Source of the DNA: an uncultured bacterium
GTDB lineage: Bacteria > Patescibacteriota > Minisyncoccia > UBA6257 > 2-01-FULL-56-20
NCBI GenBank assembly: GCA_963844965.1
Contig: CAWJQC010000007.1
Location: forward strand, 160,001 to 224,000
Direction of reading: 5' to 3'
Length of the DNA stretch: 64,000 bases
Position 1 is the first letter of the stretch, and each line of letters starts with the position of its first letter. Shown here one piece after another: positions 3,688-41,226 of this stretch. Under the pieces are notes generated by a model. The model worked only from the letters and a program-made list of their open reading frames with translations, was not told the origin of the DNA and did no database searches. A program made the position numbers and the translations under genes.

Positions 3688-3770
3688 CACGGAGTACCAG
3701 TTTCCATTTTGAAGAATCGTAGTTCGTCTTTCCCAGCGGAGCCGCCTTTTTGTTTTCGTGTTAAAATTTA

Positions 3771-3828: not shown

Positions 3829-3835
3829 TCGGACT

Positions 3836-4327: not shown

Positions 4328-4329
4328 TG

Positions 4330-4420: not shown

Positions 4421-4423
4421 CGT

Positions 4424-6252: not shown

Positions 6253-6310
6253 AAATTAGGAAGCAGAAAATAGAAAACAGGGATATGCCCAAAACAGATA
6301 AAGGCGATTA

Positions 6311-7675: not shown

Positions 7676-8664
7676 CGGAAGTAATCGAACAGAAGGAGGA
7701 GCAGGTGGAAGCAGAAAAAGAACCGAAAATGAATTTTACGATATTTTATTCGGGTCATGTCAGAGCAGGAGATTTTGATAAATTGAAAGCGCTCTTCGAA
7801 GAAGCTGATATATACGTTCCGGAATCTATTGGATGGGATAAAAGGGAAAAGGAACTCTTTAGCAGGATGTCGGCTGGAGAGATAGACGGGGAAACATTTA
7901 AAGAAATGTTGTCGAAGTTCGAAAAAGACGACCCCGTCCTAGCCGAGGAATATAAGATAATTTACAATTCACATAAACCGATAGAATTCCTCGATGTTCC
8001 CGGAGATAATCAGACACATAAAGACACCGTGATGGCTCTTGAGGGCGAGTACGACGCTTATCTCGGTTTTTTGGACGGAGAATTTGACGAGGCGGTCTCG
8101 GAAATGAAGGGAGCTTCGGAAAAGTATGCAATTGCGCAGCAGGAACGGGAAAAGTACATAAAGTCGTTGGCGAACAGCAGATTGAAAGATTTAGTCGAGA
8201 AAAACCAGGCGCTTAAAGACAAGATTAAAAAAGGAGGCGGTATAAATGTTTTAATGAGCATAGGCGCGGATCACACGGCATTGGCCAGCGGTTTAAAAAA
8301 GGATTGGCCAGGGGGCGTAGAGACGAAATTCAGCGACTCGCCCTTTATATTCGATTATGACGCGGAATTGTACCGGCGTTATATGTTCAATAAGGAAGTT
8401 GGCGATGAATTGGTTGCCAAAGCCTTACTTTCCAGAGGATTGGTCTATAAATTTCGAAATTTTTGCAGAAATCATCAAGAGATAAGCGTTGTTTCAAGAA
8501 AAATTATTTCCGGCTTGACGTTTAATGATATAAGGAAAATTTCCGAAAGTTTGGGGGCTGGCGACGATTTGCAAAAAGCTTTTGATTCGTTGGGCAGGGA
8601 TATAAAAATCCCCGAATCGCGCGAAGAAGTAGATAAAATACTAGGAAAAAATAATAAATCATGA
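7672..8664 (+). CDS. hypothetical protein (330 aa), translationally coupled to glyQS (ATGA overlap)
   Basis: ORF with a start overlapping the glyQS stop; no family recognised. Confidence 0.5.
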   Translation: MTEVIEQKEEQVEAEKEPKMNFTIFYSGHVRAGDFDKLKALFEEADIYVPESIGWDKREKELFSRMSAGEIDGETFKEMLSKFEKDDPVLAEEYKIIYNSHKPIEFLDVPGDNQTHKDTVMALEGEYDAYLGFLDGEFDEAVSEMKGASEKYAIAQQEREKYIKSLANSRLKDLVEKNQALKDKIKKGGGINVLMSIGADHTALASGLKKDWPGGVETKFSDSPFIFDYDAELYRRYMFNKEVGDELVAKALLSRGLVYKFRNFCRNHQEISVVSRKIISGLTFNDIRKISESLGAGDDLQKAFDSLGRDIKIPESREEVDKILGKNNKS

Positions 8665-18506: not shown

Positions 18507-18586
18507 GGGCCCCGTAGCGCAGATTGGTCAGCGCGCCCGACTGTTCAAGCGGGAGGTCGCTGGTTCGAATCCAGCCGGGCCCACCA
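18507..18586 (+). tRNA. tRNA with an aberrant 8-nt anticodon loop (CUGUUCAA); best guess Asn (GUU); CCA encoded
   Basis: acceptor GGGCCCC/CGGGCCC with a 7-66 mismatch, D-stem GCGC/GCGC, T-arm GCTGG-TTCGAAT-CCAGC; the anticodon stem is only CCCG/CGGG, so identity is uncertain (possible indel). Confidence 0.45.
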
Positions 18587-18614
18587 AATCTTTAGCTCTT
18601 TGGTTTTTGTTTGT

Positions 18615-18703
18615 GGCGGGATGGCGGAGTGCTAATCGCGGCAGGCCGTAACCCTGCTCTCCCATCGCGGAGTTCGAAGGTTGAAATCCCTCTCTCGCCA
18701 CCA
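18615..18703 (+). tRNA. type II (long variable arm) tRNA, Tyr-like (anticodon GUA) with an unusual C33; CCA encoded
   Basis: acceptor GGCGGGA/TCTCGCC, anticodon stem GCAGG/CCTGC with loop CCGUAAC, variable stem-loop CTCC-CATCGC-GGAG, T-arm GAAGG-TTGAAAT-CCCTC. Confidence 0.5.
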
Positions 18704-18717
18704 AATTTTTTGGATTC

Positions 18718-18788
18718 GGCGCGGTCGTCAAGTGGCAAGACTGAGGGCTTGCAAGCCCTTATCGGGGGTTCGATTCCCTCCCGCGCCT
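18718..18788 (+). tRNA. tRNA-Cys (anticodon GCA)
   Basis: acceptor GGCGCGG/CCGCGCC, anticodon stem AGGGC/GCCCT with loop UUGCAAG, T-arm GGGGG-TTCGATT-CCCTC, discriminator U. Confidence 0.75.
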
Positions 18789-19455
18789 ACACCCTACACA
18801 TTTTTTGAAACTAAAATGTGTAGGGCTCTTTCTCTCAGTCTCGGCAACCCCGACGTAAAGTCGGGGTTAAAGTCAGCATTGGGATGGTTGGCATTTCCGC
18901 CGCAAGGCGGAAAATTAAGAGCGAATGGTGGATGCCCTTGACATCAAAAGGCGACGAAGGACGCGGCGTAGCGGCGATACGCCTCGGGGAGGTGCGTAGC
19001 AACCTGTGATCCGGGGATTTCCGAATGGGGAAACCCAATTGAGCAAACCTCAATTTTTTTGCCGCAAGGCAAAAAGCAAACCCGCTGAAGTAAAACATTC
19101 CAGTAAGCGGAGGAATAGAGAACTAATGTTATTCCCTTAGTATCGGCGAGAGAAAAGGGAAGAGCCTAAACCTAAGTTTTCGCAAGAAAAGTTTGGTGTT
19201 ATAAGGTAAAAACACTTTGGATATAACGTTGAGCGTTATCCGCCAACGGCGGAGCGGCGACCAGCGTTATATCTAAAAAGGAGTTACAAATTGATTTGTT
19301 AGCCGAAGCCCACTGGAAAGGGGCGCCAAAGGGGGTGATAGCCCCGTAGGCGAAAACGAATCAACTTCTCGTTTTTATCCTTGAGTACTCTGAGGTAAAT
19401 TAGCTTCGGAGGAATTCGCCTGTACTATCAGGCAAGGCTAAATACTTTTGATGAT

Positions 19456-19492
<37 letters not shown>

Positions 19493-19687
19493 CAGGCCGG
19501 TGAGGCCGTTGAAATAGAACCTGAAACCATTCGTTTACAAGGAATTGAACCACGAACGTTCTGCCGCAAGGCGGGACGAGTGGGACAATGTGCCTATTGA
19601 AGAATGAGCCAACGACTTATTTTGCATTGCTCGTGTAAGCATCTATAAGATGCGTACGCACAGCGAAAGCGAGTCTTAATAGGGCGA

Positions 19688-19972
19688 AAACCATCTCAAA
19701 TTTTTGGACTGAAAAATAAAAACCGGTCAGTTTTTAGCTGCCGGTCTGCGAGATACCAATTCTTGTTCTAATTTTCTGACCTGAGCGTCCAGTTTTTCTT
19801 GAAGGCCACGATGCCTCAAGTATCTCCTGCCGCTTACGTGCGATCGATGTTTTTTCCTGGTCCAGATGGAATGTTGGGCCACGCAAACTCCTTTTGTCGG
19901 GCGACTGTAGATCTGGAAGGATTTTAGGATGAGCCGAATAGAAAGTCAACAGTCCAAAAATTTGAGATGGTT
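19688..19972 (+). other. 23S IVS-a (~285 nt) at the helix-25 position, flanked by a perfect 21-nt inverted repeat CCATCTCAAATTTTTGGACTG / CAGTCCAAAAATTTGAGATGG
   Basis: conserved 23S sequence resumes on both sides; long perfect stem typical of RNase III-processed IVS. Confidence 0.65.
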
Positions 19973-20479
19973 AGGCAGTGCAACATAGACCCGAAGCCAG
20001 ATGAGCTTGCCTTGGCCAGGGTGAAATCCGCCGAAAGGCGGATGGAGGCCCGAACTGGTGGGTTGTTCAAAACCTTCGGATGAGCTGAGGTAAGGAGTGA
20101 AAAGCTAATCGAATCTGGTAATAGCTGGTTCTCTCCGAAATAGTTTTACGACTAGCGGCGCAGAAAATTTCGCGGGGGTAGAGCACTGGATGATTCGTAA
20201 AGGCCGAAAGGCCGACGAATCAATCAAACTCCGAATACCGCGATTGGAACCTGCGCTAGTCAGACTGCGGGGGCTAAGCTCCGTGGTCGCGAGGGAAAAA
20301 GCCCAGATCGTCAGCTAAGGTCCCTAAATCCATGCTAAGTGTTAAAGGTAGTCTTCTGCCATAAACAGATAGGAGGTTGGCTTAGAGGTAGCCATCCTTT
20401 AAAGAGTGTGTAACAACTCACTATTCGACGGCAGGGGGCGCGAAAATGTACCGGGGCTAAGCATGGTACCGAAGCTACG

Positions 20480-20585
20480 AATTACCTTGTGCTCCGCACA
20501 AGAATTTTCAGGTAATAATTTTCAATTTTCAAATGGTTTGGAAATTGTAAATTGCAAAATTGGAAATTCTCGCGCGCAGCGCGAG
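20480..20585 (+). other. 23S IVS-b (~105 nt) at the helix-45 position; interior is related to IVS-d
   Basis: an insertion lies between GTACCGAAGCTACG and GTAGTGGTAGGAGAGCATTC; interior aattttcaaatggtttggaaattg is similar to 21275-21330. Confidence 0.6.
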
Positions 20586-20885
20586 GTAGTGGTAGGAGAG
20601 CATTCGTATTGCACTGAAGCTCGACCCGCGAGGGCGAGTGGAGCGGTACGAAGAGACAATGTTGGTATGAGTAACCACAATCCCAATGAGAAATTGGAAC
20701 CCCGAAAATCCAAGGTTTCCGTGGCACTGGCAATCAACCACGGGTTAGGCGGCCCTAAGCCGATCCCGAAAGGGGCAGGCGATGGACAGACGGTTAATAT
20801 TCCGTCCCTTCCCTATGGTTATCTGCCGCATGACGGAGGAAATAAGCTTGCGTGCCTTATTGGTTTGGCATGGTTTGCCTCAAAG

Positions 20886-21033
20886 CGTGTCTCACTGCGT
20901 TCGACACTATAGTTAAACAATTTTTCAGTTAACGAGTTGCGAGTTAACGAGTTGAAAACAAAAAACCCGTTAACACGTTAACTCTTTAACTCGTTAATAA
21001 TTAATTATTGGGTGGCGAGCGGAGCGAGGCACG
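20886..21033 (+). other. 23S IVS-c (148 nt) with terminal stem CGTGTCTCACTGCGTTCG / CGAGCGGAGCGAGGCACG; interior made of TTAACG-family repeats
   Basis: 18-bp terminal pairing with 2 mismatches; interior matches intergenic repeats at 4330-4420 and 46880-46960. Confidence 0.6.
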
Positions 21034-21238
21034 TTGGAGGCCGACCGAAGGTTCGGTTTTTACCGGGCCGACGCAGGCGAAGAGCCTTCCAAGAAAAGCG
21101 CGGCGGTCACGCCGTAGAGAATCCGTACCGGAAACCGACACAGGTGGATTGGGCGAGAAGCCCTAGGGGAACGAGTGATTTGCCTCTAAGGAACTCGGCA
21201 AACAAGCGGCCGTAAGTTAGCAATATGGCCTGCCCGAC

Positions 21239-21352
21239 CGTGCCTCACTGCGTTCGGCGCGGAATTTAAAATTTTACAATTTTTAATTTTCAAACTGTTT
21301 GCAAAATTGAAAATTATATATTGAAAATTCCGCACGAGCATAGCGAGGTGCG
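21239..21352 (+). other. 23S IVS-d (114 nt) with terminal stem CGTGCCTCACTGCGTTCG / CGAGCATAGCGAGGTGCG
   Basis: left terminus identical to IVS-c and IVS-g at 17/18 positions. Confidence 0.6.
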
Positions 21353-21479
21353 GTTGGGCCGCAGCGAAAGTCCCTTTGGCGACTGTTTACCAAAAACACA
21401 GCTCCCTGCGAACTCGCAAGAGGATGTATAGGGGGTGACGCCTGACCGATGCGAGAAGGTCAAGGCCGACGGTGCACGT

Positions 21480-21565
21480 AGCACATAGCATGTAACACAA
21501 AACAAGAAAAAATAAATAAAACCTGCTCCATGTTACATGTTGCGTGCTGCGTGTGCTGATTGGCT
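21480..21565 (+). other. 23S IVS-e: expanded helix insertion with inverted repeat GCACATAGCATGTAACAC / CATGTTACATGTTGCGTGC
   Basis: extra ~70 nt relative to the conserved flanks AGAAGGTCAAGG ... GGTAACTATAACCG. Confidence 0.45.
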
Positions 21566-21887
21566 CAAGCCCTCGTCAATGTCAGCGGTAACTATAACCG
21601 TTCTAAGGTAGCGCAATTCCTTTTCGGGTAAGTTCCGAAGCGCACGAAAGGCGTAACGATCAAAGGACTGTCTCAGAGGCAAGCTCGGTGAAAATGCGAT
21701 TCCCGTGAAGACGCGGGATACCTGCAGCGGGACGAAAAGACCCCGGAAGCTTTACTGCAGCTTGGTATTGTTTCTAGGGCTTTGATGCGTAGCGTAGTGG
21801 GGAGCCTTTGAAGCTCCGCTCTCGGGCGGGGTGGAGGCGACAATGAAACACCCATCTTCAAAGTTTTAGCGACTAACCAGTTGGGGA

Positions 21888-21932
21888 CCCTACACTCTCT
21901 AGATAAATTTTGGAAATCCAGAGAGTGTAGGG
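21888..21932 (+). other. 23S IVS-f: hairpin insertion CCCTACACTCTCT-AGATAAATTTTGGAAATCC-AGAGAGTGTAGGG
   Basis: perfect 13-bp stem; its CCCTACAC...GTGTAGGG ends are shared with the hairpin at 18792-18825. Confidence 0.5.
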
Positions 21933-22297
21933 AAACCCAACCGGGACAGTGCTTGGTAGGCAGTTTAAATGGGGCGTTTTCCTCCAAAAAAGTAACGGAG
22001 GAGTTTATTAAGGTCGGCTTAGCCCGGATGGAAATCGGGCAGGACGTGCAAACGCAAAAGCCGGCTTAACTGCAAGGCCTACAAGCCGCGCAGATGCGAA
22101 AGCAGAAGTTAGTGACCCGACCACACATTATAGAATGGTGGGAGACACCGGACAAAAGCTACTCCGGGGATAACAGGCTGGTGAAGTCCGAGAGTCCCTA
22201 TCGACGACTTCGCTCGGCACCTCGATGTCGGCTCGGCACAGCGCGGGGGTGAAGAAGCTCCCAAGCGTTTGGCTGTTCGCCAATTAAAGTGCCACGT

Positions 22298-22338
<41 letters not shown>

Positions 22339-22456
22339 TGCTGCAGGCGTTTACACTTGAGGGGAGTTGGCCCTAGTACGAGAGGACTGGGCTGAACTGA
22401 CCTCTGGTCTACCGGCTTTGGTACCAACTGAAGCGCCGGGTAGCTATGTCGGGAAG

Positions 22457-22490
<34 letters not shown>

Positions 22491-22510
22491 ACCCCAAGAT
22501 TAGGTGTAGT

Positions 22511-22648
22511 CGTGCCTCACTATCGTTCGGCACGGTATCGATGCAAATATACTAATCGTACTAATGATGCGAATTTGATTCCATTGGTATCATTAGCATT
22601 CACTTGCATATTGGTATCGATACTCGTGATGAGCGGCAGCGAGGCACG
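22511..22648 (+). other. 23S IVS-g (138 nt) near the 3' end (helix-98 region) with terminal stem CGTGCCTCACTATCGTTCG / GAGCGGCAGCGAGGCACG
   Basis: same terminal stem family as IVS-c and IVS-d; interior is palindromic. Confidence 0.6.
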
Positions 22649-22962
22649 ACAAGGTTTCGTTGAAGACTACAACGCATATAGGCTCTAGGTGTAAGATCCG
22701 TAAGGATTTCAGCCAAGGAGTACTAATAACCTGTTTTGCCAACCATCCCAATGCTGACTTGTGTGCTGTTTTGGAGAACCGCGGTTCGATTCGCTCCAGC
22801 GGCGAATCGCCCGCTGCTTCTCGCTCCGACGGCTCGCTTCAGGCGAGACCAAGCCCGTCGGAGCTCCGAAAGCTTCTCCAAAACAGCACACTGCGTCCGT
22901 TCAGAAAGTTTAGGTGTTTTCGCGAAGCGAAAACAGCAATTTAAAGATTAAAACGACTCTTT

Positions 22963-31842: not shown

Positions 31843-31851
31843 ACATCAATC

Positions 31852-31940
31852 TTACGAAAATACGAAAATATACGAAATTACGAAAACTAAATTTGAGGTG
31901 ACCACATTTCGTACGTTCGTAAAATTTCGTACTTTCGTAA
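31852..31940 (+). promoter_or_regulatory. array of four direct TACGAAA heptamers followed by three inverted TTTCGTA copies immediately upstream of ppsA; candidate operator/iteron-like sites
   Basis: repeats read directly. Confidence 0.45.
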
Positions 31941-31958
31941 GAGCGGGCAATAGCGAGC

Positions 31959-34436
31959 ATGAAATCCAAAAAATTAATTCTCAAATTTGAAGAAGTCGGC
32001 ATCAAGGACGTTCCGCTCGTAGGCGGCAAGAACGCGTCCCTAGGCGAGATGATACGCACGCTCAAGAGCAAGGGCGTGCCCGTGCCGTCCGGCTTTGTCG
32101 TCACCGCCACCGCTTATTTTTATTTTCTGAAGAAAACGAAACTTGATAAATTCATTAAGGAAACGCTTGAAGGGCTGGATACGAAGAAGCTGAAAGACCT
32201 GCACGACCGCGGCTCGGCCATCAGATACGCCATAACACGCGCGGAATTTCCCAAAGACCTTGAGCGTGAAATCGTGAAAGCGTATCGCGAACTTGAAGCG
32301 CGCTATGGCAAGGACGTTGACGTCGCCGTGCGTTCTTCCGCCACGGCTGAAGATCTTCCCGGAGCGTCCTTCGCCGGCGAGCAGGAGAGCTACCTCGGCA
32401 TCCGCGGGGCCGCGGAAGTGTCCAAGGCCGTGCGTGCCACAATGGCTTCGCTTTTCACCGACCGCGCCATTTCTTACCGCCACGACCGCGGTTTTGACCA
32501 CTTCAAAGTCGGCCTTTCCGCCGGCGTCCAGAAAATGGTGCGTTCCGACCGCGCCTGCTCCGGCGTGATGTTCACGTTGGACACCGAGTCCGGTTTCAAG
32601 GACGTCGTTCTCATCAACGGCTCGTGGGGTTTGGGCGAGATGATAGTGAAAGGCGAGGTGACTCCCGACGAATTTTTTATCTGGAAAGAAGGGCTGAACA
32701 AGGGAGTGAAGCACCCCATCATTGAAAAGAAACTCGGAGTGAAACTGCGCAAAATGATTTACCACCGCGGCGCGGCAATTCAGCAGACGAAGATAATTCC
32801 CACGGACGAGAAGGAGCGCGATTCGTTCGTGCTCAAAGACAAGGAAATAGAAGAGCTCGCGCGCTGGGGAGTCATCATTGAAAAGCATTACACGGAGCAC
32901 TACAAAAAGTGGACGCCTATGGATATGGAGTGGGCGAAGGACGGCGTCACGGGCGAACTTTTCATAGTTCAGGCAAGGCCGGAGACCATCCACGCCAATC
33001 AGGATTTTTCAAAAGTCAAAGAATATATTCCGCTTGAACGCCGCGAGCCGATCGTGATGGGCGCGTCCGTCGGTTCCAAGATTGCCACGGGAAAAGCACG
33101 CGTGATACTGGACGCCAAGCGCATCGGTCAGTTCAAAAAAGGAGAGGTGCTTGTGACCACGATGACCGACCCCGACTGGGAGCCGATAATGAAAATGGCT
33201 TCCGCGATAGTGACGGACAAGGGCGGTCGCACTTCGCACGCCGCGATAGTGAGCCGCGAACTCGGAATTCCGGCGGTGGTCGGAACCGAGAAGGCGACGA
33301 GAATTATAAAGACCGGCGATCCCATCACGGTGGACACGACCGGGAGCGCCGGCAACGTTTACCGCGGTTTTTTGAAATTCAAAGTGGTTGAGCACGACCT
33401 GAAAAAAATTCCCCGGCCGAAGACGCACATCATGGTGAACGTGGCGATTCCCGACAGCGCCTTTGAAACCTCGTTCCTGCCGACGAGCGGCGTCGGGCTC
33501 GCGCGGGAAGAATTCATCATCGCGTCCAGGATGGGAGTGCATCCGATGGCTTTGCTCAACTTATCCAAGCAGCCGTCCGTTATCCGGCGCGCGATTGAAG
33601 CCAAAATGCGCGGCTGGAAAGATCCGAAGCAATATTATATAGATAATCTTGCTTTTGGCATCGCGAAGATCGGCGTGGCTTTCTCACCGAACCCCGTCAT
33701 CGTCCGCTTCTCGGATTTCAAGACAAACGAATATCGCACCTTGCTCGGTGGCGGACCGTATGAACCGAAGGAGGAAAATCCGATGATCGGCTGGCGCGGC
33801 GCTTCGCGCTACTATGACCCGAAATTCAGGCCGGCGTTCATGCTTGAGGCGGCGGCCGTGAAAAAAGTCCGCGAAGAGATGGGGCTCACGAACGTTATTC
33901 CCATGGTGCCGTTCTGCCGCACGGTGGAAGAGGGAATTAAAACGCAGGAAGCGATGGCCGAAGCCGGACTCATCACGGAATATATTGCCAATCGCCATCG
34001 GGACGGCACAAAAAAACTTCCGCGTCATTCCGCGTCAGTTCCGCGTAGTTCTGCGACCGTGCCGGTGTACGTGATGTGTGAAATTCCTTCCAATGTCCTA
34101 CTCGCCGACAAGTTCCTGGATATTTTTGACGGCATGTCCATCGGTTCCAACGATTTGACACAGCTCACGCTGGGATTAGACCGTGACTCCGGCATTGTGA
34201 CGAAGATTGCCAACGAAAAGAACGACGCGGTGAAAAAACTCATCGCGGAAGTGATAGCCCGCTGCCACGCGCGCAAAAAATACATCGGCATCTGCGGCCA
34301 GGGGCCATCCGATTATCCGGATTTCGCGGAGTTTTTGGTGGAAGCGGGAATAGACAGCATGTCCCTGAACCCCGACACCGTGGTGCGCACGACGGTCGCG
34401 GTAGCGGAGAAGGAGAGGGAATTGAAGAGAGGGTAG
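31959..34436 (+). CDS. ppsA: phosphoenolpyruvate synthase (pyruvate, water dikinase)
   Basis: ATP-grasp N-terminus, phosphohistidine domain GGRTSHAAIVSRELGIPAVVG, PEP-utilising C-terminal domain. Confidence 0.9.
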   Translation: MKSKKLILKFEEVGIKDVPLVGGKNASLGEMIRTLKSKGVPVPSGFVVTATAYFYFLKKTKLDKFIKETLEGLDTKKLKDLHDRGSAIRYAITRAEFPKDLEREIVKAYRELEARYGKDVDVAVRSSATAEDLPGASFAGEQESYLGIRGAAEVSKAVRATMASLFTDRAISYRHDRGFDHFKVGLSAGVQKMVRSDRACSGVMFTLDTESGFKDVVLINGSWGLGEMIVKGEVTPDEFFIWKEGLNKGVKHPIIEKKLGVKLRKMIYHRGAAIQQTKIIPTDEKERDSFVLKDKEIEELARWGVIIEKHYTEHYKKWTPMDMEWAKDGVTGELFIVQARPETIHANQDFSKVKEYIPLERREPIVMGASVGSKIATGKARVILDAKRIGQFKKGEVLVTTMTDPDWEPIMKMASAIVTDKGGRTSHAAIVSRELGIPAVVGTEKATRIIKTGDPITVDTTGSAGNVYRGFLKFKVVEHDLKKIPRPKTHIMVNVAIPDSAFETSFLPTSGVGLAREEFIIASRMGVHPMALLNLSKQPSVIRRAIEAKMRGWKDPKQYYIDNLAFGIAKIGVAFSPNPVIVRFSDFKTNEYRTLLGGGPYEPKEENPMIGWRGASRYYDPKFRPAFMLEAAAVKKVREEMGLTNVIPMVPFCRTVEEGIKTQEAMAEAGLITEYIANRHRDGTKKLPRHSASVPRSSATVPVYVMCEIPSNVLLADKFLDIFDGMSIGSNDLTQLTLGLDRDSGIVTKIANEKNDAVKKLIAEVIARCHARKKYIGICGQGPSDYPDFAEFLVEAGIDSMSLNPDTVVRTTVAVAEKERELKRG
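34386..34433 (+). repeat. copy 1 of CGCACGAC(G/C)GTCGCGGTAGCGGAGAAGGAGA... (native 3' end of ppsA); further copies at 35590-35628 and 36349-36385
   Basis: 32-40 nt near-identical direct repeats read directly. Confidence 0.65.
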
Positions 34437-34484
34437 TCAGAGTTGAGCAGGTTTTTGGCCAAAATGTGCGGATTTGAGCAATAA

Positions 34485-34517
34485 TGTATAGATTTAGAGT
34501 CTGCTTGTATAGATTTA
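34485..34517 (+). promoter_or_regulatory. two direct TGTATAGATTTA 12-mers spaced 21 nt apart upstream of the MerR-family gene; candidate operator
   Basis: read directly. Confidence 0.35.
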
Positions 34518-34563
34518 AAAAATATGCTAAACTACGCCTAAGGCACAAAGAGCCCGTTTTCTT

Positions 34564-35289
34564 ATGGAAAATGAGGATGATTTGATAACTATAGGCCAGG
34601 CCGCCGAACTGCTTGGGGTTTCTATCATGACACTTCGCCGTTGGGACGAAAGCGGGCGTTTTCTATCCATAAGGAAACGGCCCGGCGGCGACCGCTACTA
34701 CAGAAAAAAAGACGTGGAACTATTTTTAAGCGATCTGTTTCGCTTGGCGTACGACTGGGTTCTCTCGAATGCCGAATTTCCGGAAACCCTTTATTGCCAG
34801 ACGAGCGCGACCTTTCAAGCGCGCCTCACGAGAATGCAGGATGACATGATCCGCAGCGGGACCGTGAAAGAGCTATTTTCGCTTCTCGTTTCGATTGCGG
34901 GAGAGATAGGAAATAATTCATACGACCACAATCTCGGATCGTGGCCCGACACGCCCGGAATATTTTTCGGATATGACCTCAATAAAAAGCATATCGTGCT
35001 TGCCGACCGCGGACTCGGCGTTCTTGAAACATTAAAGAGAGTAAGGCCGCAACTGGACAACTTTGAAGATGCGTTGCGAGTTGCTTTTACGGAAGTGATT
35101 TCGGGGCGTGCTCCCGAAGGAAGAGGAAATGGATTAAAATACGTAAAGGAAGTAATCTCGGAAAACCCGATTAGCCTGCTCTTCCAAAGCGGAGATGCGG
35201 AACTTACGATGAATGGCAAAAGTCAAAACTTCACGGTAGCTAAAAGCAAAAATAGTTTGCGCGGCTGCTTCGCATTCATATCGTATTAA
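34564..35289 (+). CDS. fusion of a MerR-family HTH with a GHKL (RsbW/SpoIIAB-like anti-sigma kinase) ATPase domain
   Basis: N-terminal ITIGQAAELLGVSIMTLRRWDESG HTH; C-terminal N-box EIGNNSYDH, G1 DRGLG, G2 GRGNGL. Confidence 0.6.
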   Translation: MENEDDLITIGQAAELLGVSIMTLRRWDESGRFLSIRKRPGGDRYYRKKDVELFLSDLFRLAYDWVLSNAEFPETLYCQTSATFQARLTRMQDDMIRSGTVKELFSLLVSIAGEIGNNSYDHNLGSWPDTPGIFFGYDLNKKHIVLADRGLGVLETLKRVRPQLDNFEDALRVAFTEVISGRAPEGRGNGLKYVKEVISENPISLLFQSGDAELTMNGKSQNFTVAKSKNSLRGCFAFISY

Positions 35290-35294
35290 AATCA

Positions 35295-35588
35295 ATGATC
35301 ATTGAGCTCAAAAAATTCGGCACAACGCTCATTTCACGGCAAATGGGGCGCGAATCGTTCGCTGCCCTGCAGCCGCTTTTGCGCGACGTGAGAGAAGGAG
35401 AAAACATCGACATCGATTTTGATGGCGTTTTGACATTCTCTCCGTCGTGGGGCGATGAATTCCTGACGCCGCTCGGAAAGACTTATGGCAAAAGAATTTT
35501 ATTAAGGAATACGGGCAATCCATCGGTACGGGCCACGTTGGAATTACTGGAGAAAACCACGAACGTTAAGTTTTCCGTACAGGATTGA
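35295..35588 (+). CDS. STAS-like (DUF4325 / anti-sigma-factor-antagonist-like) protein
   Basis: size and pattern match STAS/DUF4325; 5 nt downstream of the GHKL gene. Confidence 0.5.
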   Translation: MIIELKKFGTTLISRQMGRESFAALQPLLRDVREGENIDIDFDGVLTFSPSWGDEFLTPLGKTYGKRILLRNTGNPSVRATLELLEKTTNVKFSVQD

Positions 35589-35589
35589 T

Positions 35590-35628
35590 GTCGCGGTAGC
35601 GGAGAAGGAGAAAGAATTGAAGAGGGGA
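35590..35628 (+). repeat. copy 2 of the ppsA 3'-end repeat, immediately after the STAS gene stop
   Basis: TGTCGCGGTAGCGGAGAAGGAGAAAGAATTGAAGAGGGG versus 34394-34433. Confidence 0.65.
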
Positions 35629-35733
35629 TAAGCGGCTGACCGGCACTTTTGGCGTCCCGTTAACCACCCGAACTGCCGTAGTTTACACGCCGGGTGGAGA
35701 TGCCGCTTTACAAAAATAATCGATGGCTGTATA

Positions 35734-36210
35734 ATGCGACCAGCCATTAATTTGATTCGGAAAGGGGTGTTTTATGGCGGTAGGGCGAAAGTGCAAGAAT
35801 ATTTTGAGGCGGCGGAGCTTGTTGAACAATATGTGGCTATGACTGAGCAGATGTATGACCAGCTACGCAGTTCCTTGGAATTGGCGGGGGACACCGCCGG
35901 CGCTAAAGCCACGAACATTCAAAAGAAAATTTACGCCGTGGTTCGTGACAGGGTTTTCGATTTTGTCTATGGAACTTACGAGGACCTTCTTACGAACGAA
36001 GAGGTGGACCAGCTTATTGAAATGGAGCGGCTTCCGATTGTTAAAAAGATGAGGGAGCTCACTCCGGAAATTCAGAACAGGATTATCGGATTCGTTATGT
36101 CTGCATATAAAGAGCTGGAAAAAGAAATAGAGAGAATTATCCACTCCGAACTCATAGGTGCCGACATCCTGCAAAAAACGTTTCCGCAGAAAACCAACCT
36201 GCCGAACTGA
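35734..36210 (+). CDS. hypothetical protein (158 aa)
   Basis: ORF with an upstream TATAAT box and a downstream terminator. Confidence 0.45.
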   Translation: MRPAINLIRKGVFYGGRAKVQEYFEAAELVEQYVAMTEQMYDQLRSSLELAGDTAGAKATNIQKKIYAVVRDRVFDFVYGTYEDLLTNEEVDQLIEMERLPIVKKMRELTPEIQNRIIGFVMSAYKELEKEIERIIHSELIGADILQKTFPQKTNLPN

Positions 36211-36250
36211 TTTCCTGTCGCGCCTCTCGTAGTGAACAATACATAATGCT

Positions 36251-36275
36251 GCCCGGTTTACCGGGCGGTTTTTTT
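36251..36275 (+). terminator. rho-independent terminator GCCCGG-TTTA-CCGGGC GG T7
   Basis: read directly. Confidence 0.65.
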
Positions 36276-36348
36276 GCTTGTATCTTATCGGGCGGCGTGG
36301 CTCAAATGGTGGACCTGCCGGCAGGCGGGGATGATACAGTCGGCCGCG

Positions 36349-36385
36349 CGCACGACCGTCGCGGTAGCGGAGAAGGAGAAGGGGA
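36349..36385 (+). repeat. copy 3 of the ppsA 3'-end repeat between convergent terminators
   Basis: CGCACGACCGTCGCGGTAGCGGAGAAGGAGAAGGGGA. Confidence 0.6.
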
Positions 36386-36408
36386 TGGGGAGGAAGTAGG
36401 ATATTTGG

Positions 36409-36444
36409 AAAACAAAAAGCGGACAGGGTTTGACGCCTGCCCGC
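36409..36444 (-). terminator. minus-strand rho-independent terminator (GCGGGCAGGCGTCAAACCCTGTCCGC plus T-run) for the gene at 36489-36749
   Basis: hairpin plus A-run on the plus strand. Confidence 0.55.
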
Positions 36445-36488
36445 CGAGTTTCTGGTCCTCGTCAGATTTGCCGTTTTGCCGTTGGAGT

Positions 36489-36749
36489 TTAACCGGAGTG
36501 GGGGTCGACTCTCGATACGAACCACCCGAAGTTAACCCCGAAGGGTTCATATTCGATCACATCCCTTTCGTGGAGTTTCTTTGCAATCGCCGGAGAAGCG
36601 ATGATGTGAAATCCGCCAAGGAATCGTGCCGGCGTCCGCGCCGTTCCAAGGCCGAGGTCGCGAATAACCTGGTCATCATCCGCCGGATATAACAGGATGC
36701 GGTCCCCGTCGTCTTCTATCTTTCCAATCGTCAAGGTTGGGTTAGCCAT
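36489..36749 (-). CDS. hypothetical protein (87 aa; MANPTLTIGKIEDDGDRILLYP...), start overlapping the stop of the upstream gene (ATGGCTAA)
   Basis: RBS GGAGGTGG, terminator downstream; ORF-track entry 36489-36947 reads through from further upstream. Confidence 0.5.
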   Translation of the reverse strand: MANPTLTIGKIEDDGDRILLYPADDDQVIRDLGLGTARTPARFLGGFHIIASPAIAKKLHERDVIEYEPFGVNFGWFVSRVDPHSG

Positions 36750-37260
36750 TGTCCACCTCCGACCTTTGGAGATAGTGCGCTTCGCGGCAGTGATAACAGC
36801 GAACCTTCTTGTCTGCCGCTGCAACTGCATCAGCGAATTGCGCAGCCGCTTCCTCGTTGTCCCATTGGCCAAGTTCGCGCTCCGCCACGGGCTCCAGGAA
36901 GAAGATTTCCTTTTCCTTGCCGGAGACCTTGCCGACATGCCCGTCAACGCCGGGGTTTTTCGCTACGACTCTCGCGATTGCGATGCGGGTATCGTTGCGG
37001 TCAGCATTGGCGAACACGAAGCAATCGCCGGGTAGTATGGCGAAAAGAGCGTGTTCGCGGTTCGCGTATCCCTTGCGTGGGACGAAGATGGGCTTTTTGG
37101 ATTTTCCTTCGCGGTCACAGATGATGACCGCATCGCCGGTGTTGGTGTACCCACCGCCGCATTCCCAAGCGGCGGTAAGACGTGACTTCGTTCGGTGGAC
37201 GGTGACGGTAGTATCCATTGTCGTGTCCTTTCTTCTCTCGCGACCGATTTGAATTAGCAC
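36741..37260 (-). CDS. hypothetical protein (~158-172 aa), translationally coupled to 36489-36749
   Basis: ORF only; likely start at MDTTVTV (37218). Confidence 0.45.
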
Positions 37261-37548
37261 GCGAAGTGCTGTCGGTTGCGGCCTTGCAGGCTCCCTTTTC
37301 GTCGGGGAATGTCTCTGAACTTATTTTCTCAAAGAGCCCTTAAAGCGGCTGCTCAAATGGCTTGTGCGTCTGTTCTCCTAGCACCGGTTCTCAAAATCCC
37401 CTCATTGGAGGGGGTTTATTTTAACAGCTAGGATTTATCGTTTTCCTTCTCCAAAAAATTGGGTTGTGGGACGTTAGGGGTCAATGCACACAAAAAAAAC
37501 GACCCACGCAGTGCGTGAGTCATAAATTTTCAGCGAGTTCTGGTTTTC

Positions 37549-38274
37549 TCAGTATAAGCCCTTCGTTCTGAGGTGAGTGATTATCTTTTTGGCGATGACC
37601 ATCGGCAGTTCCCTCCGCCACATTATGCGCGTGTCCGTTCGCGGAAAAAGTTTCCAGATAGCCGTACCTTCTTTGGGATTGCCCTTGTCGTCTATTTCAA
37701 TCCTGAAATCCTGGAGTTTGAGTTCGTTTATCAGCCAATCGGCTGTGGGACGATATTCCAGGTGGGGGCCGAATTGCAGGTCTCCGTCCTTCATTCCAAT
37801 GATAGGTGACCTCGCGAAACCGCTGCACCACTGATTGACAATGGCCCTCTGCAGTTTTTCCTGGTTGTGGATTTTCGTGGAAGACCACAAAATTATGATG
37901 TCGTTCTTGTACCTTTCGCCCACGTAATAGCCGGCCGGCCATTTGCATCCCAAACCGATAGCGAAGCAGGTGCCATTGAACCTGACGACGCTGAAATATT
38001 CGTAACGCATGTAGGCCGTGCGCGAGTTGCAGTCGCCGGGCCGGGTATCGTCGGCGATTCTTGAAAACGCGCCGTCGTAGCTCCAATGATCTCCCGGGTC
38101 TTCCTTGGGAAAGAAAACCCTCGCCAATTCATTTTCGGTGAGAAGTTTGTAAACTTCCTCCACCACTTCTTCTCCGTAGAGGCCGCGTTGATTTGTAGCC
38201 CTGAGCGCGGCATCAATGTGCCTCACAAGAACTCCCCGAAGTTTCCACTTGAATTCCCGTATGTTCTGAAACAC
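37549..38274 (-). CDS. hypothetical protein (241 aa)
   Basis: ORF with a strong downstream terminator (GACCCACGCAGTGCGTGAGTC plus T8 on the minus strand); no family recognised. Confidence 0.45.
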   Translation of the reverse strand: MFQNIREFKWKLRGVLVRHIDAALRATNQRGLYGEEVVEEVYKLLTENELARVFFPKEDPGDHWSYDGAFSRIADDTRPGDCNSRTAYMRYEYFSVVRFNGTCFAIGLGCKWPAGYYVGERYKNDIIILWSSTKIHNQEKLQRAIVNQWCSGFARSPIIGMKDGDLQFGPHLEYRPTADWLINELKLQDFRIEIDDKGNPKEGTAIWKLFPRTDTRIMWRRELPMVIAKKIITHLRTKGLY

Positions 38275-38360
38275 TGTCCACCTCCTGCGTTTCTATATAA
38301 CTGGTTAGTGCCACCTTGGATTGTAGTCGCCGAAACCACCGTCGTCAAGTTTTTAGGCGC

Positions 38361-38390
38361 CGTTTTCCTTTCCCGAAAAATGGGGTTAAA
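38361..38390 (+). promoter_or_regulatory. conserved 30-nt upstream element CCGTTTTCCTTTCCCGAAAAATGGGGTTAA; second copy at 40009-40038 upstream of eno
   Basis: 30/30 identity between the two sites, each ~20 nt upstream of a start codon; followed by TATACT 4 nt before the ATG. Confidence 0.5.
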
Positions 38391-38409
38391 ATTTTTTTGC
38401 TATACTTGA

Positions 38410-39168
38410 ATGATGGCTACAAATATCAACCCCGTTCTTGAGGTGCGTGAACTGCGGAGATTGTACGGCGAAACGGTTGCCGTGAACGATATTTCGTTTG
38501 CGGTGTACCCGAACGAGATTGTCGGTCTTCTCGGACCGAATGGCGCGGGAAAAACGACGACTATCAATATGATTCTCGGAGTTTTGGAACCCACCGGGGG
38601 TTCCATCCGGATAAAAGGAAAAGATATCGCAAAGAAGCACAGCGAGGTGCTCTCGCGTACCAATTTCGCGGCGGTCTACGCGCAAGTTCCCGGCAATCTG
38701 ACGGTCTTTCAGAATCTCCATATATTCGGGCTGATGTACGGCGTGCCGGATTTGCGCAACCGCATCGAGGAATGCCTCGGAAATTTTGACCTTAAGGATT
38801 TCAGGAATACCAAATGCGGCGTGCTTTCCTCGGGCGAGCAAACGAGGGTGGGTTTGGCGAAGGCGATGCTCAATAATCCCGACCTTCTTCTCCTTGACGA
38901 ACCGACGGCTTCGCTTGATCCCTCGAGCGCCCAGATCGTCCGCGCGAAAATTAAAGATTATGCCGCGAGCGGCGCCGGGGGAATTTTGTGGACATCCCAC
39001 AATATGCATGAAGTAGCGGACGTCTGCGACCGCGTTCTTTTTCTCTCGCACGGCAAGATTATTCTTGAAGGCGATCCCAAGATGCTTCCCGGCGAATATG
39101 GCAAAAAAGACCTTGAAGAACTTTTTATCGCGATTGCCCGCGAACCGCTCGCTTTGGAATCCGTATAA
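38410..39168 (+). CDS. ABC transporter ATP-binding protein (ABC-2 type)
   Basis: Walker A GPNGAGKTT, signature LSSGEQ, Walker B LLLLDEP. Confidence 0.85.
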   Translation: MMATNINPVLEVRELRRLYGETVAVNDISFAVYPNEIVGLLGPNGAGKTTTINMILGVLEPTGGSIRIKGKDIAKKHSEVLSRTNFAAVYAQVPGNLTVFQNLHIFGLMYGVPDLRNRIEECLGNFDLKDFRNTKCGVLSSGEQTRVGLAKAMLNNPDLLLLDEPTASLDPSSAQIVRAKIKDYAASGAGGILWTSHNMHEVADVCDRVLFLSHGKIILEGDPKMLPGEYGKKDLEELFIAIAREPLALESV

Positions 39169-39177
39169 TAATTTTAC

Positions 39178-39981
39178 ATGAGCATAAAACGCATTTACGC
39201 AATATTCCTCCGCCAAATTTATCTCATTCGCGGCAACGGCACGCGCTTCATTCAGATATTTATTTGGATTACCGTAGACATCACGCTGTGGGGCTTCATC
39301 AGTAAATACCTTACCGGAATAGCCGGCTCCGGGTTCAGTTTTGTGCCCATCTTGTTGGGTGCGGTCCTCCTGTGGGATTTTCTGATTCAAGTTATGCAAG
39401 GCATCACCATGTCATTCTTTGAAGATGTGTGGTCCCGCAATTTTTTGAACATTTTTGCGTCACCGCTGAGGATATCCGAGTATATTGCCGGCCTCGTGCT
39501 TACGGGAATTATGAGAAGCATACTGGCCCTCGTTGTCATGCTTATGTTTGCGACTCTCGTCTTCGGGCTTTCAATTTTCATCTACGGCGTTTCTCTTGCG
39601 TTATTCCTCCTCATCCTCTTTCTTTTCGGCATCTCTTTGGGAATTTTCGGCATCAGCATTGTGCTCCGGCTTGGACCATCGGCCGAGTGGTTCGTCTGGC
39701 CTATTCCTGCCCTGCTTTCCCCGTTTGTGGGAGTGTTTTACCCCTTGACGACGCTGCCTCAGTGGATGCAATACGTCGGGCAGCTTCTCCCGCCTTCATA
39801 TGTTTTTGCGGGCATCCGCAGCATCATTAACGGCGGAGGGTTTTCTCTTCCCACGCTCATCTGGGGAATTATTCTTTCCATATTTTATATTATTCTTGCG
39901 TATAGTGTTTTTACGGCGATTTACCGAAAAGCGATGCGTACCGGTCTTATCGCTCGCTACAGCGCGGAGAATGTAAGTTGA
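39178..39981 (+). CDS. ABC-2 family transporter permease
   Basis: 6-TM hydrophobic protein directly downstream of the ATPase. Confidence 0.7.
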   Translation: MSIKRIYAIFLRQIYLIRGNGTRFIQIFIWITVDITLWGFISKYLTGIAGSGFSFVPILLGAVLLWDFLIQVMQGITMSFFEDVWSRNFLNIFASPLRISEYIAGLVLTGIMRSILALVVMLMFATLVFGLSIFIYGVSLALFLLILFLFGISLGIFGISIVLRLGPSAEWFVWPIPALLSPFVGVFYPLTTLPQWMQYVGQLLPPSYVFAGIRSIINGGGFSLPTLIWGIILSIFYIILAYSVFTAIYRKAMRTGLIARYSAENVS

Positions 39982-40008
39982 CGCTATCAAAATGCAATTT
40001 CTCTAGCT

Positions 40009-40038
40009 CCGTTTTCCTTTCCCGAAAAATGGGGTTAA
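40009..40038 (+). promoter_or_regulatory. second copy of the CCGTTTTCCTTTCCCGAAAAATGGGGTTAA element, upstream of eno
   Basis: identical 30-mer. Confidence 0.5.
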
Positions 40039-40047
40039 TATTATTGT

Positions 40048-41226
40048 ATGACATACAAAATGATGTTAACCGCTCGTCAGATTCTTGATTCGCGCGGGGA
40101 ACGGACGATAGAAGTTCAACTGGTAACTGGTAACCGGAAATTGGTAACTGGTTCTGTGCCGCAGGGGAAGAGCAAGGGTTCTTTTGAGGCGCATTACGTT
40201 CCGCCGGAGGTTGCCGTGCGGAATGTGGAGAAAATTATCGCGCCGAAGCTTAAAAATTTTGACGTTACGCGCCAGCGCGACATTGATTCATTTTTGATAA
40301 GGTTGGACGGCACGCCGATGAAATCCCGCCTCGGGGCGAACGCCATTTTGGGCGTTTCCATTGCTTGCGTGAAAGCCGGAGCGGCGGTTAAAAACGTGCC
40401 GCTTTGGAAATATATTGGGAAATTGCTTGGTGGCGTTCCGGCAAAAAAATCTGCAGGCCCGCGGCCATACGTCAACATGATCAACGGCGGCATGCACGCC
40501 GGAAATAATCTGCGTTTCCAGGAATATCTTGTGATTCCCAAGGCGAAAACTTTTTCGGAAGCCGTGTGGATCGCGACCGAATTGTACCAATCGCTAAAAA
40601 TTTATTTGGAAAAAACAAAAGGCAGAAGCGCGGCTAATTTGGGCGATGAAGGTGGCTTCGCGCCGGATTTCAAGGATGCGCTTGAACCCTTCGCCATATT
40701 GGAGAAAGTCGCGAAAAGCGCCGGCCTGCGCGGCAAAATTGATTTCGGACTGGATGCCGCGGCGACAGATGCCGGTTTGAACGTGAAAAAATTTTCGGAA
40801 ACCTACGCGGTGATGGCGAAGAAATTTAATTTGTTTTATTTGGAAGACCCGCTTCCCGAAAATGATTTTAAAGGATTCGCCGCTTTGCGGCAAGAGTTGC
40901 CGCGGCATCTTCTCGTCGCCGGCGATGACCTTACGGTGACAAATCTGGAACGGATGGAACTTGCGCACGATTCGGAGAGCGTGAACGCGATGATAGTGAA
41001 ACCGAATCAGATAGGCACGGTAACGGAGGCGATTGACGCCGTGCGCAAAGCGAAAGAATGGGGCTGGGCGGTTGTCGTTTCTCATAGGAGTGGTGAAACG
41101 AACGACGATTTCATCGCCGACTTCGCAGTAGGCGTTCGCGCCGACGGTTTCAAGCTCGGCGCTCCCGCCCGCGGCGAACGGATCGCGAAATATAACAGGT
41201 TGCTGGAGATCGAACGGGAATTCTGA
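40048..41226 (+). CDS. eno: enolase (phosphopyruvate hydratase); likely start at M5 (40060)
   Basis: ARQILDSRGERTIEVQL..., SHRSGETNDDFIADFAV and other enolase signature blocks. Confidence 0.9.
   Translation: MTYKMMLTARQILDSRGERTIEVQLVTGNRKLVTGSVPQGKSKGSFEAHYVPPEVAVRNVEKIIAPKLKNFDVTRQRDIDSFLIRLDGTPMKSRLGANAILGVSIACVKAGAAVKNVPLWKYIGKLLGGVPAKKSAGPRPYVNMINGGMHAGNNLRFQEYLVIPKAKTFSEAVWIATELYQSLKIYLEKTKGRSAANLGDEGGFAPDFKDALEPFAILEKVAKSAGLRGKIDFGLDAAATDAGLNVKKFSETYAVMAKKFNLFYLEDPLPENDFKGFAALRQELPRHLLVAGDDLTVTNLERMELAHDSESVNAMIVKPNQIGTVTEAIDAVRKAKEWGWAVVVSHRSGETNDDFIADFAVGVRADGFKLGAPARGERIAKYNRLLEIEREF

Follow-up and report, generated by a model that had tools for sequence, protein, structure and literature searches.

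Displaced core-gene ends bracket small gene cassettes between ppsA and eno in an uncultured member of the Patescibacteria

Introduction

In Streptococcus, cis-mobilizable elements (CIMEs) and microCIMEs accrete in tandem at the 3' ends of fda, rpsI and rpmG (PMC7563491), and in Prochlorococcus, tycheposons integrate serially at one site, where older elements are pushed inward (bioRxiv 10.1101/2020.12.28.424599). The present study concerns a comparable arrangement between ppsA, the gene of phosphoenolpyruvate (PEP) synthase, and the enolase gene eno in an uncultured bacterium of the Patescibacteriota (GenBank assembly GCA_963844965.1). The analysed DNA is the 64-kb stretch of contig CAWJQC010000007.1 from position 160,001 to 224,000, hereafter called the window, and all positions are counted from its first letter. 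Downstream of ppsA, small gene cassettes are bounded by displaced copies of the ppsA 3' end, and the cassette next to ppsA, called cassette 1, encodes a predicted partner-switching pair that also occurs in many other genomes. The locus is a variation on cassettes flanked by attachment (att) sites without an integrase, on integrase-free hot spots and on partner-switching pairs. The reading that we favour, with a confidence that stands midway between doubt and conviction, is that homology-driven additive insertion without a dedicated integrase built the array between ppsA and eno.

The array resembles CIMEs in that integrase-less cargo segments of overlapping size are flanked by 3'-end repeats of a conserved protein gene and are stacked in tandem. 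However, CIMEs are decayed integrative and conjugative elements (ICEs) or integrative and mobilizable elements (IMEs), which occur in tandem or share att sites with integrase-bearing elements, and at ppsA an element of this type was found in none of 80 genomes. In addition, the identical segment varies here between independent events, and the target of the bracket around cassette 1 differs in each repeat-flanked locus. Tycheposons share with the present case a streamlined genome and partial target-gene copies scattered through the island, which in their case are decayed elements with partial tRNAs; they carry tyrosine recombinases and target tRNA genes, whereas here the ends of protein genes and a leader are affected and no recombinase is associated.

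The spread of minimal mobile elements and integrase-free hot spots is attributed to transformation and to homologous recombination in the flanks. Minimal mobile elements in Neisseria, and integrase-free hot spots between core genes, were reportedly described by Saunders and Snyder in 2002 and by Oliveira et al. in 2017. There, as here, different whole-gene cassettes share one slot between two conserved genes and carry no mobility genes; however, the exchange there is a double-crossover replacement without duplicated gene ends, whereas here it is additive and displaced ends are left behind. Short homology on incoming DNA also drives Campbell-type integration, homology-facilitated illegitimate recombination and transformation-induced duplication (PMC3784515; PMC3240628). 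The insert is then flanked by two homologous copies, or by one homologous and one illegitimate junction, which is a further likeness to the present locus. These routes have mostly been seen in laboratory constructs or as rare events, and to our knowledge they have not been described as a recurrent natural builder of cassette arrays at gene termini.

The pair encoded by cassette 1 differs from the partner switches SpoIIAB-SpoIIAA, RsbW-RsbV and SiaB-SiaC in that the kinase is fused to a MerR/excisionase-type helix-turn-helix (HTH) domain, and neither a sigma factor nor a phosphatase is present in the cassette. The partner is a DUF4325 protein without detectable sequence relation to SpoIIAA (hhalign probability 0.07%), and the pair behaves as a mobile cassette.

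Patescibacteria, or the candidate phyla radiation (CPR), have tiny genomes that are largely without classical mobile elements, and their acquisition of accessory genes is poorly understood. If the favoured reading is true, gene-end duplications would provide a simple sequence signature for recent cassettes and their order of insertion in uncultured genomes, with no integrase needed, and conserved metabolic genes would be shown to act as landing pads. The interest of the locus lies in the recurrent gene-end brackets around one very common and unstudied cassette.

Results and Discussion

Displaced copies of the ppsA 3' end

A sequence-only reading of the window had claimed that the ppsA 3' end is present in three direct copies which partition the island into modules, and both points are borne out. 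The last 52 nt of ppsA recur as direct repeats at 35580–35631 and 36348–36399, where the true homology of the first repeat begins only at 35590, 1 nt past the stop codon of the DUF4325 gene. A 22-nt core, GTCGCGGTAGCGGAGAAGGAGA, is identical in the functional end (copy A) and in the two displaced ends (copies B and C); it occurs exactly three times in the 64-kb window and in none of 100 shuffles (0 expected by chance). Every copy keeps the reading frame and closes with its own stop codon, the last residues being AVAEKERELKRG in copy A, AVAEKEKELKRG in copy B and AVAEKEKGMGRK in copy C, and the homology among the copies stops at the stop codon in all three.

The mismatches relative to copy A are concentrated behind the core. 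Copy B has 0/22 mismatches in the core and 5/20 in the tail (Fisher p = 0.018), and copy C has 1/32 and 9/20, respectively (Fisher p = 0.0004). Such abruptly diverged, in-frame tails after an identical core fit tails that derive from different ppsA alleles, not the drift of a filled-in duplication. The combination also fits serial recombination in which each incoming DNA would have brought its own ppsA end, and the oldest of the three ends, the one originally resident, would be copy C.

Two independent Logan contigs of run ERR10755942 reproduce the window, with 100% identity over 34946–37290 and 99.9% over 37296–38592. They cover copies B and C with both flanks of each, which makes the junctions at these two copies independent of any single assembler; copy A is spanned by no independent contig.

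A second repeat family, which the earlier reading did not contain, consists of copies of the eno leader (E1 to E3, Table 1) that bracket the hyp241 and ABC-transporter cassettes. The order of the array is ppsA with copy A, cassette 1, B, cassette 2, C, hyp87/hyp158b, E1, hyp241, E2, ABC transporter, E3 and eno, with displaced ppsA ends towards the left and displaced eno leaders towards the right. The perfect 30-nt match between E2 and E3 has an expectation of 0 by chance.

An insertion in a variable slot

The comparison set consisted of 80 related ppsA loci with 62–83% ppsA identity, all from metagenome-assembled genomes (MAGs) of Patescibacteria (Paceibacteria-type), in which the gene order glycerate kinase-ppsA-enolase is conserved. 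An exact-protein search with the ppsA product of the window had no match. In the closest relative found (L001, 82% ppsA identity), the start codon of the ABC ATPase lies 11 nt past the ppsA stop; a relative with an intact ppsA-ABC transporter junction, which the sequence-only reading had proposed to look for, therefore exists. None of the six island proteins had a tblastn match in the 80 loci. The empty junction in L001 and the absence of the island proteins from the relatives indicate that the island is an insertion. The ABC transporter follows ppsA directly in L001 and lies downstream of ppsA in L003, L024 and L005.

The island sits in a slot that is variable across the group. The gap between ppsA and eno measures 14–51 nt in 14 relatives and about 1 kb in some 20, where it mostly holds a 2-hydroxyacid dehydrogenase, the commonest family downstream of ppsA (18/138 open reading frames, ORFs); in the remaining relatives it measures 1.2–6.2 kb and contains assorted genes.

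An independent second case at the same gene is found in L014 (12394–13172), where an MntA/HepT pair (type VII toxin-antitoxin) directly follows the ppsA stop and is itself followed by a displaced ppsA 3' end, ISLNPDTVVKTIMMLSRK, with its stop codon. This remnant has a core with 31/34 identical positions and a tail that is four codons shorter. The identical ppsA segment covers −69 to −35 in L014 and −42 to −20 in the window; one core is common to the three copies of the window, and L014 uses a different part of ppsA.

Similar brackets were observed around other cassettes. In L076, the eno 3' end is duplicated at 6191–6262 and 8201–8272, and the 5' end of the downstream 2-hydroxyacid dehydrogenase gene at 7519–7567 and 9033–9081; the duplicates are interleaved (A..B'..A'..B) with small ORFs between them, an order that is expected if a fragment with the whole eno-dehydrogenase junction was inserted additively. 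Direct repeats of 42–63 nt, near-perfect in each case, bracket an N6_N4 methylase and MvaI/BcnI restriction pair in L085 (1618–1680 and 3967–4029), a 334-aa gene in front of eno in L044 (17139–17180 and 18267–18308) and two small ORFs in L038 (3814–3865 and 4619–4670). The same bracket around unrelated cassettes in L085, L076 and L044 points to a host-level process.

Target-copy brackets around cassette 1 in other genomes

Cassette 1 is encoded in more than 568 metagenomic stretches. The best 120 homologues are all full-length and 60–100% identical, and those with named sources belong to several Patescibacteria lineages. The gene of the DUF4325 partner lies directly downstream in 83/89 fetched loci, and five of the other six end at a contig end. 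Between loci, DNA homology begins at the operator and ends exactly with the partner's stop codon, and the flanks are unrelated. In Patescibacteria, cassette 1 is a common, conserved and self-contained module.

A tight direct-repeat bracket of 28–300 nt surrounds cassette 1 in 11/60 testable other loci, compared with 13/4749 (0.27%) control windows, which were shifted windows in the same loci (p = 1e-15); the odds ratio corresponds to an 82-fold enrichment. No two repeat-flanked loci share the bracketing sequence, which always derives from DNA next to the cassette. In L085, L131, L134, L161 and L165, the repeat corresponds to the downstream gene's 5' end, in the window, L116 and L152 to the upstream gene's 3' end, and in the others to intergenic DNA; an intact copy of the duplicated gene is retained in every bracketed locus. 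Across the 13 repeat-flanked loci, neither conserved element termini nor a fixed duplication length was found.

In their left part, the two target copies of a locus are usually identical at close to 100% of positions, and the identity falls to about 55–65% where they abut the left end of the cassette. This left-identical, right-diverged mosaic occurs in 8 loci and the opposite in 1 (sign test p = 0.04). It fits a left part of resident origin to which a foreign allele has been joined on the right, and comparison of the copies suggests a crossover of the resident sequence with an incoming allele. The identical core and diverged tails of the ppsA copies in the window follow this pattern. In L134, the diverged part still encodes a similar peptide by our own reading of the sequences, and AAATAA is shared at the second junction.

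In L112, two repeat families (5148–5443, 5722–5760, 7174–7212 and 7211–7514) stand in swapped order (A..B..cassette..B A), for which simple tandem duplication is no explanation.

Proposed insertion process

Under homology-driven insertion, the interval 34437–40047 would be an accretion array of small, horizontally acquired cassettes. The incoming DNA would carry its own end of a flanking core gene, namely the last 40–50 nt of ppsA on the left or the eno leader on the right, and this piece would derive from the previous host of the cassette. A crossover with the resident copy inside the short identical stretch would leave the functional gene with a complete end supplied by the newcomer, and the previous end would be displaced to the far side of the cassette. 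Repeated rounds would yield ppsA with A, cassette 1, B, cassette 2 and C, and further right E1, hyp241, E2, ABC transporter, E3 and eno.

We infer the molecular route and the order of events from these patterns; host homologous recombination, and not a dedicated integrase, would do the work. Two routes can be considered. In the first, a circularised fragment would integrate by a single Campbell-type crossover; in the second, a one-sided homologous anchor would be combined with a microhomology join at the other end, as may follow DNA uptake. In Streptococcus pneumoniae, transformation induces duplications through alternative pairing of one donor fragment (PMC3784515). A second join inside the homologous stretch would produce a duplication, and a join outside it would leave no trace. 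The position of the second join would thus explain why most cassettes in the slot, and 80% of the cassette-1 loci, have no repeats.

A ppsA-specific integrase and a classical transposon are both argued against by the many targets, the variable repeat length and the lack of conserved termini. The different segment used in L014, the mosaic and the lack of a recombinase at the 80 ppsA loci argue in the same direction. When the DNA within 10 kb of ppsA was searched by jackhmmer with XerD and resolvase seeds, none of the 80 relatives yielded a tyrosine or serine recombinase (0/80), and none appears among the top 25 Pfam families of the 138 ORFs downstream of ppsA, although a search for tyrosine recombinases with one seed and a top-25 family list could miss a divergent integrase.

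This limit of the search is one of several points that weigh against the homology-driven reading. The 22-nt core, which extends to 35 nt if two mismatches are allowed, barely reaches the length that a RecA-dependent crossover requires, and an identical core between diverged arms is exactly the look of an integrase att site. No donor has come to light: the exact 22-mer had no match in metagenome and viral contig collections, ppsA adjoins cassette 1 in 0/89 loci, and neither the donor arrangement (ppsA tail A followed by cassette 1) nor a circular junction was found. The reading also assumes that the organism is competent. Finally, the repeat begins 0–9 nt past the stop codon of the partner gene in 5/13 repeat-flanked loci, and in three of those five the duplication begins 1–3 nt before the downstream ATG; this right junction is neater than random illegitimate joining would predict and hints at a defined end of the element or at strong selection.

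A wider generalisation is offered tentatively and is, in our estimate, rather improbable. Patescibacteria may expand their variable gene content by a recurrent, integrase-free "insertion-duplication", in which small cassettes bring along a short stretch of a neighbouring core gene as a portable attachment site, and the HTH-RsbW-like/DUF4325 pair would then be the most successful rider; or the pair itself may be a new mobile element whose insertion beside start and stop codons leaves long target duplications of variable length.

Alternative explanations

The main rival is an integrase of the tyrosine or another type acting in trans, which is a possible though doubtful source of the array. The cassettes would then be integrase-less, att-flanked remnants or satellites accreted at an attB site in the ppsA 3' end, in the manner of CIMEs or of the decayed elements in tycheposon islands. 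The direct repeats restore the 3' end of the target, and the identical 22-nt core stands with diverged arms in three copies; the newest element adjoins the functional gene, as in tycheposon islands, and CIMEs of 1.2–13 kb and gene-less microCIMEs of 130–220 bp are documented. The window also contains a tyrosine recombinase and a microCIME-sized duplication of a tRNA-Ala 3' end. This recombinase, an ORF at 5–1105 on the + strand (Pfam Phage_integrase, 8e-43), is the only one in the window and lies 33 kb away. However, in none of the 80 relatives does an integrase-bearing element adjoin ppsA, and L014 has its identical segment elsewhere in the gene. The brackets of cassette 1 elsewhere differ in target and length and have no common core, so a different integrase and a precise decay would be needed for each repeat-flanked locus. 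The mosaic, moreover, extends over 50–100 nt of diverged homologous sequence, unlike att arms. When the six island proteins were scanned with Pfam, NCBIfam, PHROG and PADLOC, neither a recombinase nor transfer genes came to light, in agreement with the statement of the sequence-only reading that no integrase lies inside the island. Of its further proposal of serial insertion, the accretion itself is sustained by the displaced gene ends and the lack of an integrase in cis, whereas site-specific integration at the ppsA terminus, as the mechanism, is not upheld by the relatives, by L014 or by the locus-specific targets.

Described classes of elements were also considered. An integron cassette array was rejected, since no IntI integrase with an attI site adjoins the array and there is no attC-type folding: single-stranded DNA folds of the three copies gave z = −1.1, 0.2 and 0.1, none beyond shuffles. 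An integrative mobile element exploiting Xer (IMEX) has at each junction a dif-like site, which is 28 bp long with two inverted arms. Neither an inverted repeat nor dyad symmetry was found at copies A, B and C, which are not dif-like, and this class was rejected on that ground. A transposon or insertion sequence was rejected because the 13 loci share no termini and have duplications of 28–300 nt.

It is considerably less probable that cassette 1 is a new autonomous mobile element, whose own proteins or an unrecognised partner insert it with long, variable target-site duplications. The strong enrichment of tight flanking duplications, the 60–84% protein identity across many Patescibacteria lineages in unrelated contexts, the close fit of the right junction to the stop codon in 5 loci and the excisionase/IS607-type HTH are in favour of such an element. 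However, the proteins contain no nuclease or recombinase domain and the fold is that of an RsbW-type kinase. Conserved termini and a fixed duplication length are lacking, the same brackets surround unrelated cassettes (toxin-antitoxin, restriction-modification, ABC), and the diverged tails in the window speak against fill-in duplication. The median pairwise DNA identity among cassette-1 loci is 82%, and no near-identical copies were seen in different contexts; recent transposition was rejected for that reason. Cassette pairs with at least 99.8% identity appear to be the same locus sampled again, with the flanks checked for some of them.

An origin in situ is very improbable. The ppsA 3' end and the eno leader would have been duplicated locally in tandem and would then have drifted, so that the "cassettes" would be old intergenic genes. 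Direct repeats in tandem order are indeed the product of unequal crossing-over, and transformation-induced tandem duplications are documented (PMC3784515). However, each interval contains unrelated DNA that is absent from the relatives, the tails hold the mismatches in a sharp cluster, cassette 1 is plainly foreign and occurs in hundreds of other contexts, and the empty site of L001 contradicts this origin.

An assembly artefact, that is, a chimeric join of strain variants at the shared 22-mer, is scarcely credible: the source is indeed a MAG and one Logan contig breaks off within the HTH-GHKL gene, at 34945, but the independent Logan contig L170 reproduces 34946–37290 exactly across copies B and C, the exact repeat of 22 nt is presumably below the k-mers usual for final contigs, and analogous structures occur in many unrelated assemblies.

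Layout of the array

The features between ppsA and eno are given in Table 1. The gene content listed by the sequence-only reading, comprising the HTH::GHKL fusion, the DUF4325 gene, a 158-aa ORF, a coupled pair and a 241-aa gene with terminator-like hairpins, is found as described; the genes of the coupled pair, hyp87 and hyp158b, overlap by 11 nt. Promoter-like and terminator-like sites of their own are present in cassette 2 and in both minus-strand units.

Table 1. Positions of the anchor genes, gene-end copies and cassettes in the window.
Feature	Positions	Strand	Family match
ppsA (PEP synthase, 825 aa), left anchor gene	31959–34436	+	Pfam PPDK_N, PEP-utilizers, PEP-utilizers_C
Copy A, functional ppsA 3' end; core 34395–34416, then tail RELKRG and stop	34385–34436	+	
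Spacer of 48 nt from the ppsA stop to the conserved start of cassette 1; absent from homologous cassettes elsewhere	34437–34484	+	
Cassette 1 operator/promoter: TGTATAGATTTA boxes 34485–34496 and 34506–34517 (21 nt apart), then TATGCTAAACT	34485–34533	+	
Cassette 1 gene 1: MerR/excisionase-type HTH (residues ~7–56) fused to SpoIIAB/RsbW-like GHKL kinase domain (~100–241)	34564–35289	+	
Cassette 1 gene 2: DUF4325 (STAS-like) partner, 97 aa	35295–35588	+	Pfam DUF4325, 5.5e-4
Copy B, displaced ppsA 3' end; core, then tail KELKRG and stop	35590–35631	+	
Cassette 2: promoter-like site 35707–35735, 158-aa ORF 35734–36210, terminator-like hairpin 36248–36269	35632–36347	+	
Copy C, displaced ppsA 3' end, 52 nt, tail KGMGRK and stop	36348–36399	+	
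Cassette 3a: terminator-like hairpin 36445–36418, hyp87 36489–36752, hyp158b 36742–37218	36418–37218	−	
E1, weak eno leader copy, 23/27 nt	37439–37465	+	
Cassette 3b: hyp241 (241 aa) 37549–38274, terminator-like hairpin 37523–37499, promoter-like site 38348–38320	37499–38348	−	
E2, eno leader copy 5' of the ABC ATPase; 51 nt at 84%, 30 nt perfect	38346–38396	+	
ABC-2 transporter cassette: ATPase 38410–39168, permease 39178–39981	38410–39981	+	Pfam ABC_tran, ABC2_membrane
E3, resident eno leader, ends 2 nt 5' of the eno start codon	39995–40045	+	
eno (enolase), right anchor gene	40048–41226	+	NCBIfam TIGR01060, 4e-108

The island had also been called richer in G+C than its surroundings. This is correct for 36200–37400, where the GC content is 54–58%, and incorrect for cassettes 1 and 2, which at 46–51% lie below ppsA (52–61%).

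PADLOC, PHROGs and NCBIfam gave nothing informative on the five unknown proteins, and hyp87 and hyp158b had no match in Pfam, NCBIfam, PHROG or PADLOC. Among 5.8 billion proteins, the only match to the 158-aa ORF of cassette 2 was the ORF itself, which makes it an orphan. For hyp158b, 32 distant and unannotated homologues were found, and for hyp241 only 6, likewise unannotated, among 1.84 billion representative proteins. No Rfam family was detected in the region of 31.5–40.5 kb.

The protein pair and operator of cassette 1

When the profile of the HTH-GHKL protein was searched against the PDB by sequence, the HTH alone was matched. The kinase domain was identified by fold search, which showed that a GHKL (Bergerat) fold of the small anti-sigma kinase type is present. 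E114/N118, D148-x-G150-x-G152 and G188-N-G190 are invariant in 30 homologues, and we take them by our own reading to be the N, G1 and G2 boxes of ATP binding. The DUF4325 match in Pfam was obtained for 63/67 homologues of the partner, with a best value of 1e-8. The single-sequence AlphaFold2 model of the partner (predicted local distance difference test, pLDDT, 54) was too poor for a fold search. An equivalence of the invariant S51 of DUF4325 with Ser58 of SpoIIAA, proposed from an alignment by eye, was dropped as unsupported by hhalign.

The TGTATAGATTTA boxes are kept in every aligned homologous locus. Within 150 nt upstream of the pair, at least one box is present in 69/79 loci and at least two in 54/79, compared with a background of 0.03 per 150 nt, and the dominant spacing across loci is 20–21 nt. 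By our own reading of the sequence, TATGCTAAACT is a putative −10-like element. Cassette 1 is a self-contained operon, probably with autoregulation, in which the HTH is most likely to bind the two TGTATAGATTTA boxes and the RsbW-like kinase domain is most likely to bind or phosphorylate the DUF4325 partner. The two contacts together would constitute a partner switch that acts on DNA binding and not on a sigma factor. A partner switch wired to a DNA-binding domain, as the sequence-only reading had suggested, is well supported at the level of fold and architecture.

The HTH-fused RsbW-like kinase and its DUF4325 partner form a large, highly conserved family, which would represent a new partner-switch output, directly on DNA binding; no functional study of it was found in the literature searched, in which DUF4325 appears in only three papers. 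The neighbours of cassette 1 include restriction-modification genes, Fic, RhuM, toxin-like ATPases and large serine recombinases. Since cassette 1 is highly conserved across many lineages and resides in regions that are variable and rich in defence genes, it may be selfish or defensive, and the pair is a candidate module of either kind. In PADLOC, the HTH alone matches mad1 and nothing else was found at E < 0.001; cassette 1 fits no PADLOC model of a known anti-phage defence system.

A large serine recombinase lies within 3 kb of the pair in 7/89 loci, compared with 0/80 ppsA loci (p = 0.015). These loci are L089, L097, L103, L115, L118, L120 and L168, with distances of 0.1–3 kb. L089, an IMG/VR contig, is phage-like over 625–6720 and contains a replication initiator, TerS, TerL and a serine integrase, followed by the pair; phages may either carry the pair or insert beside it. 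No full-length homologue was found on GenBank phages or PLSDB plasmids. L082 and L083 contain the same cassette-1 allele and are identical from about 3361 on, with the same downstream AAA_5/VWA genes; the upstream contexts differ, one assembly having ribosomal protein genes there and the other a P-type ATPase, which is either a strain-level rearrangement or a chimeric contig.

Further observations in the window

Just 5' of the ppsA start, at 31850–31942, there is a 36-nt inverted repeat (86% complementary) with TACGAAA-like units, which is a candidate operator of the glycolytic gene cluster.

A 30-nt direct repeat (90% identical) is located at 2604–2633 and 2795–2824, 191 nt apart. It consists of the last 18 nt of a tRNA-Ala(GGC) gene (2807–2878, − strand) and 12 nt of flank; only hairpin-rich non-coding DNA lies between the copies, and the tyrosine recombinase gene is 1.5 kb away. 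The arrangement looks like an att remnant or a microCIME.

The tRNA genes at 18508–18788, two of which have odd anticodon loops (ARAGORN), lie just 5' of the 23S rRNA gene. The 23S rRNA match at 18905–22743 spans 3839 nt compared with the 2925-nt model, which indicates about 0.9 kb of inserted sequence; the insert includes a 168-aa ORF (20406–20912) and a repeat at 20886–20917 and 21239–21270. The rRNA genes of CPR bacteria often contain introns that encode homing endonucleases.

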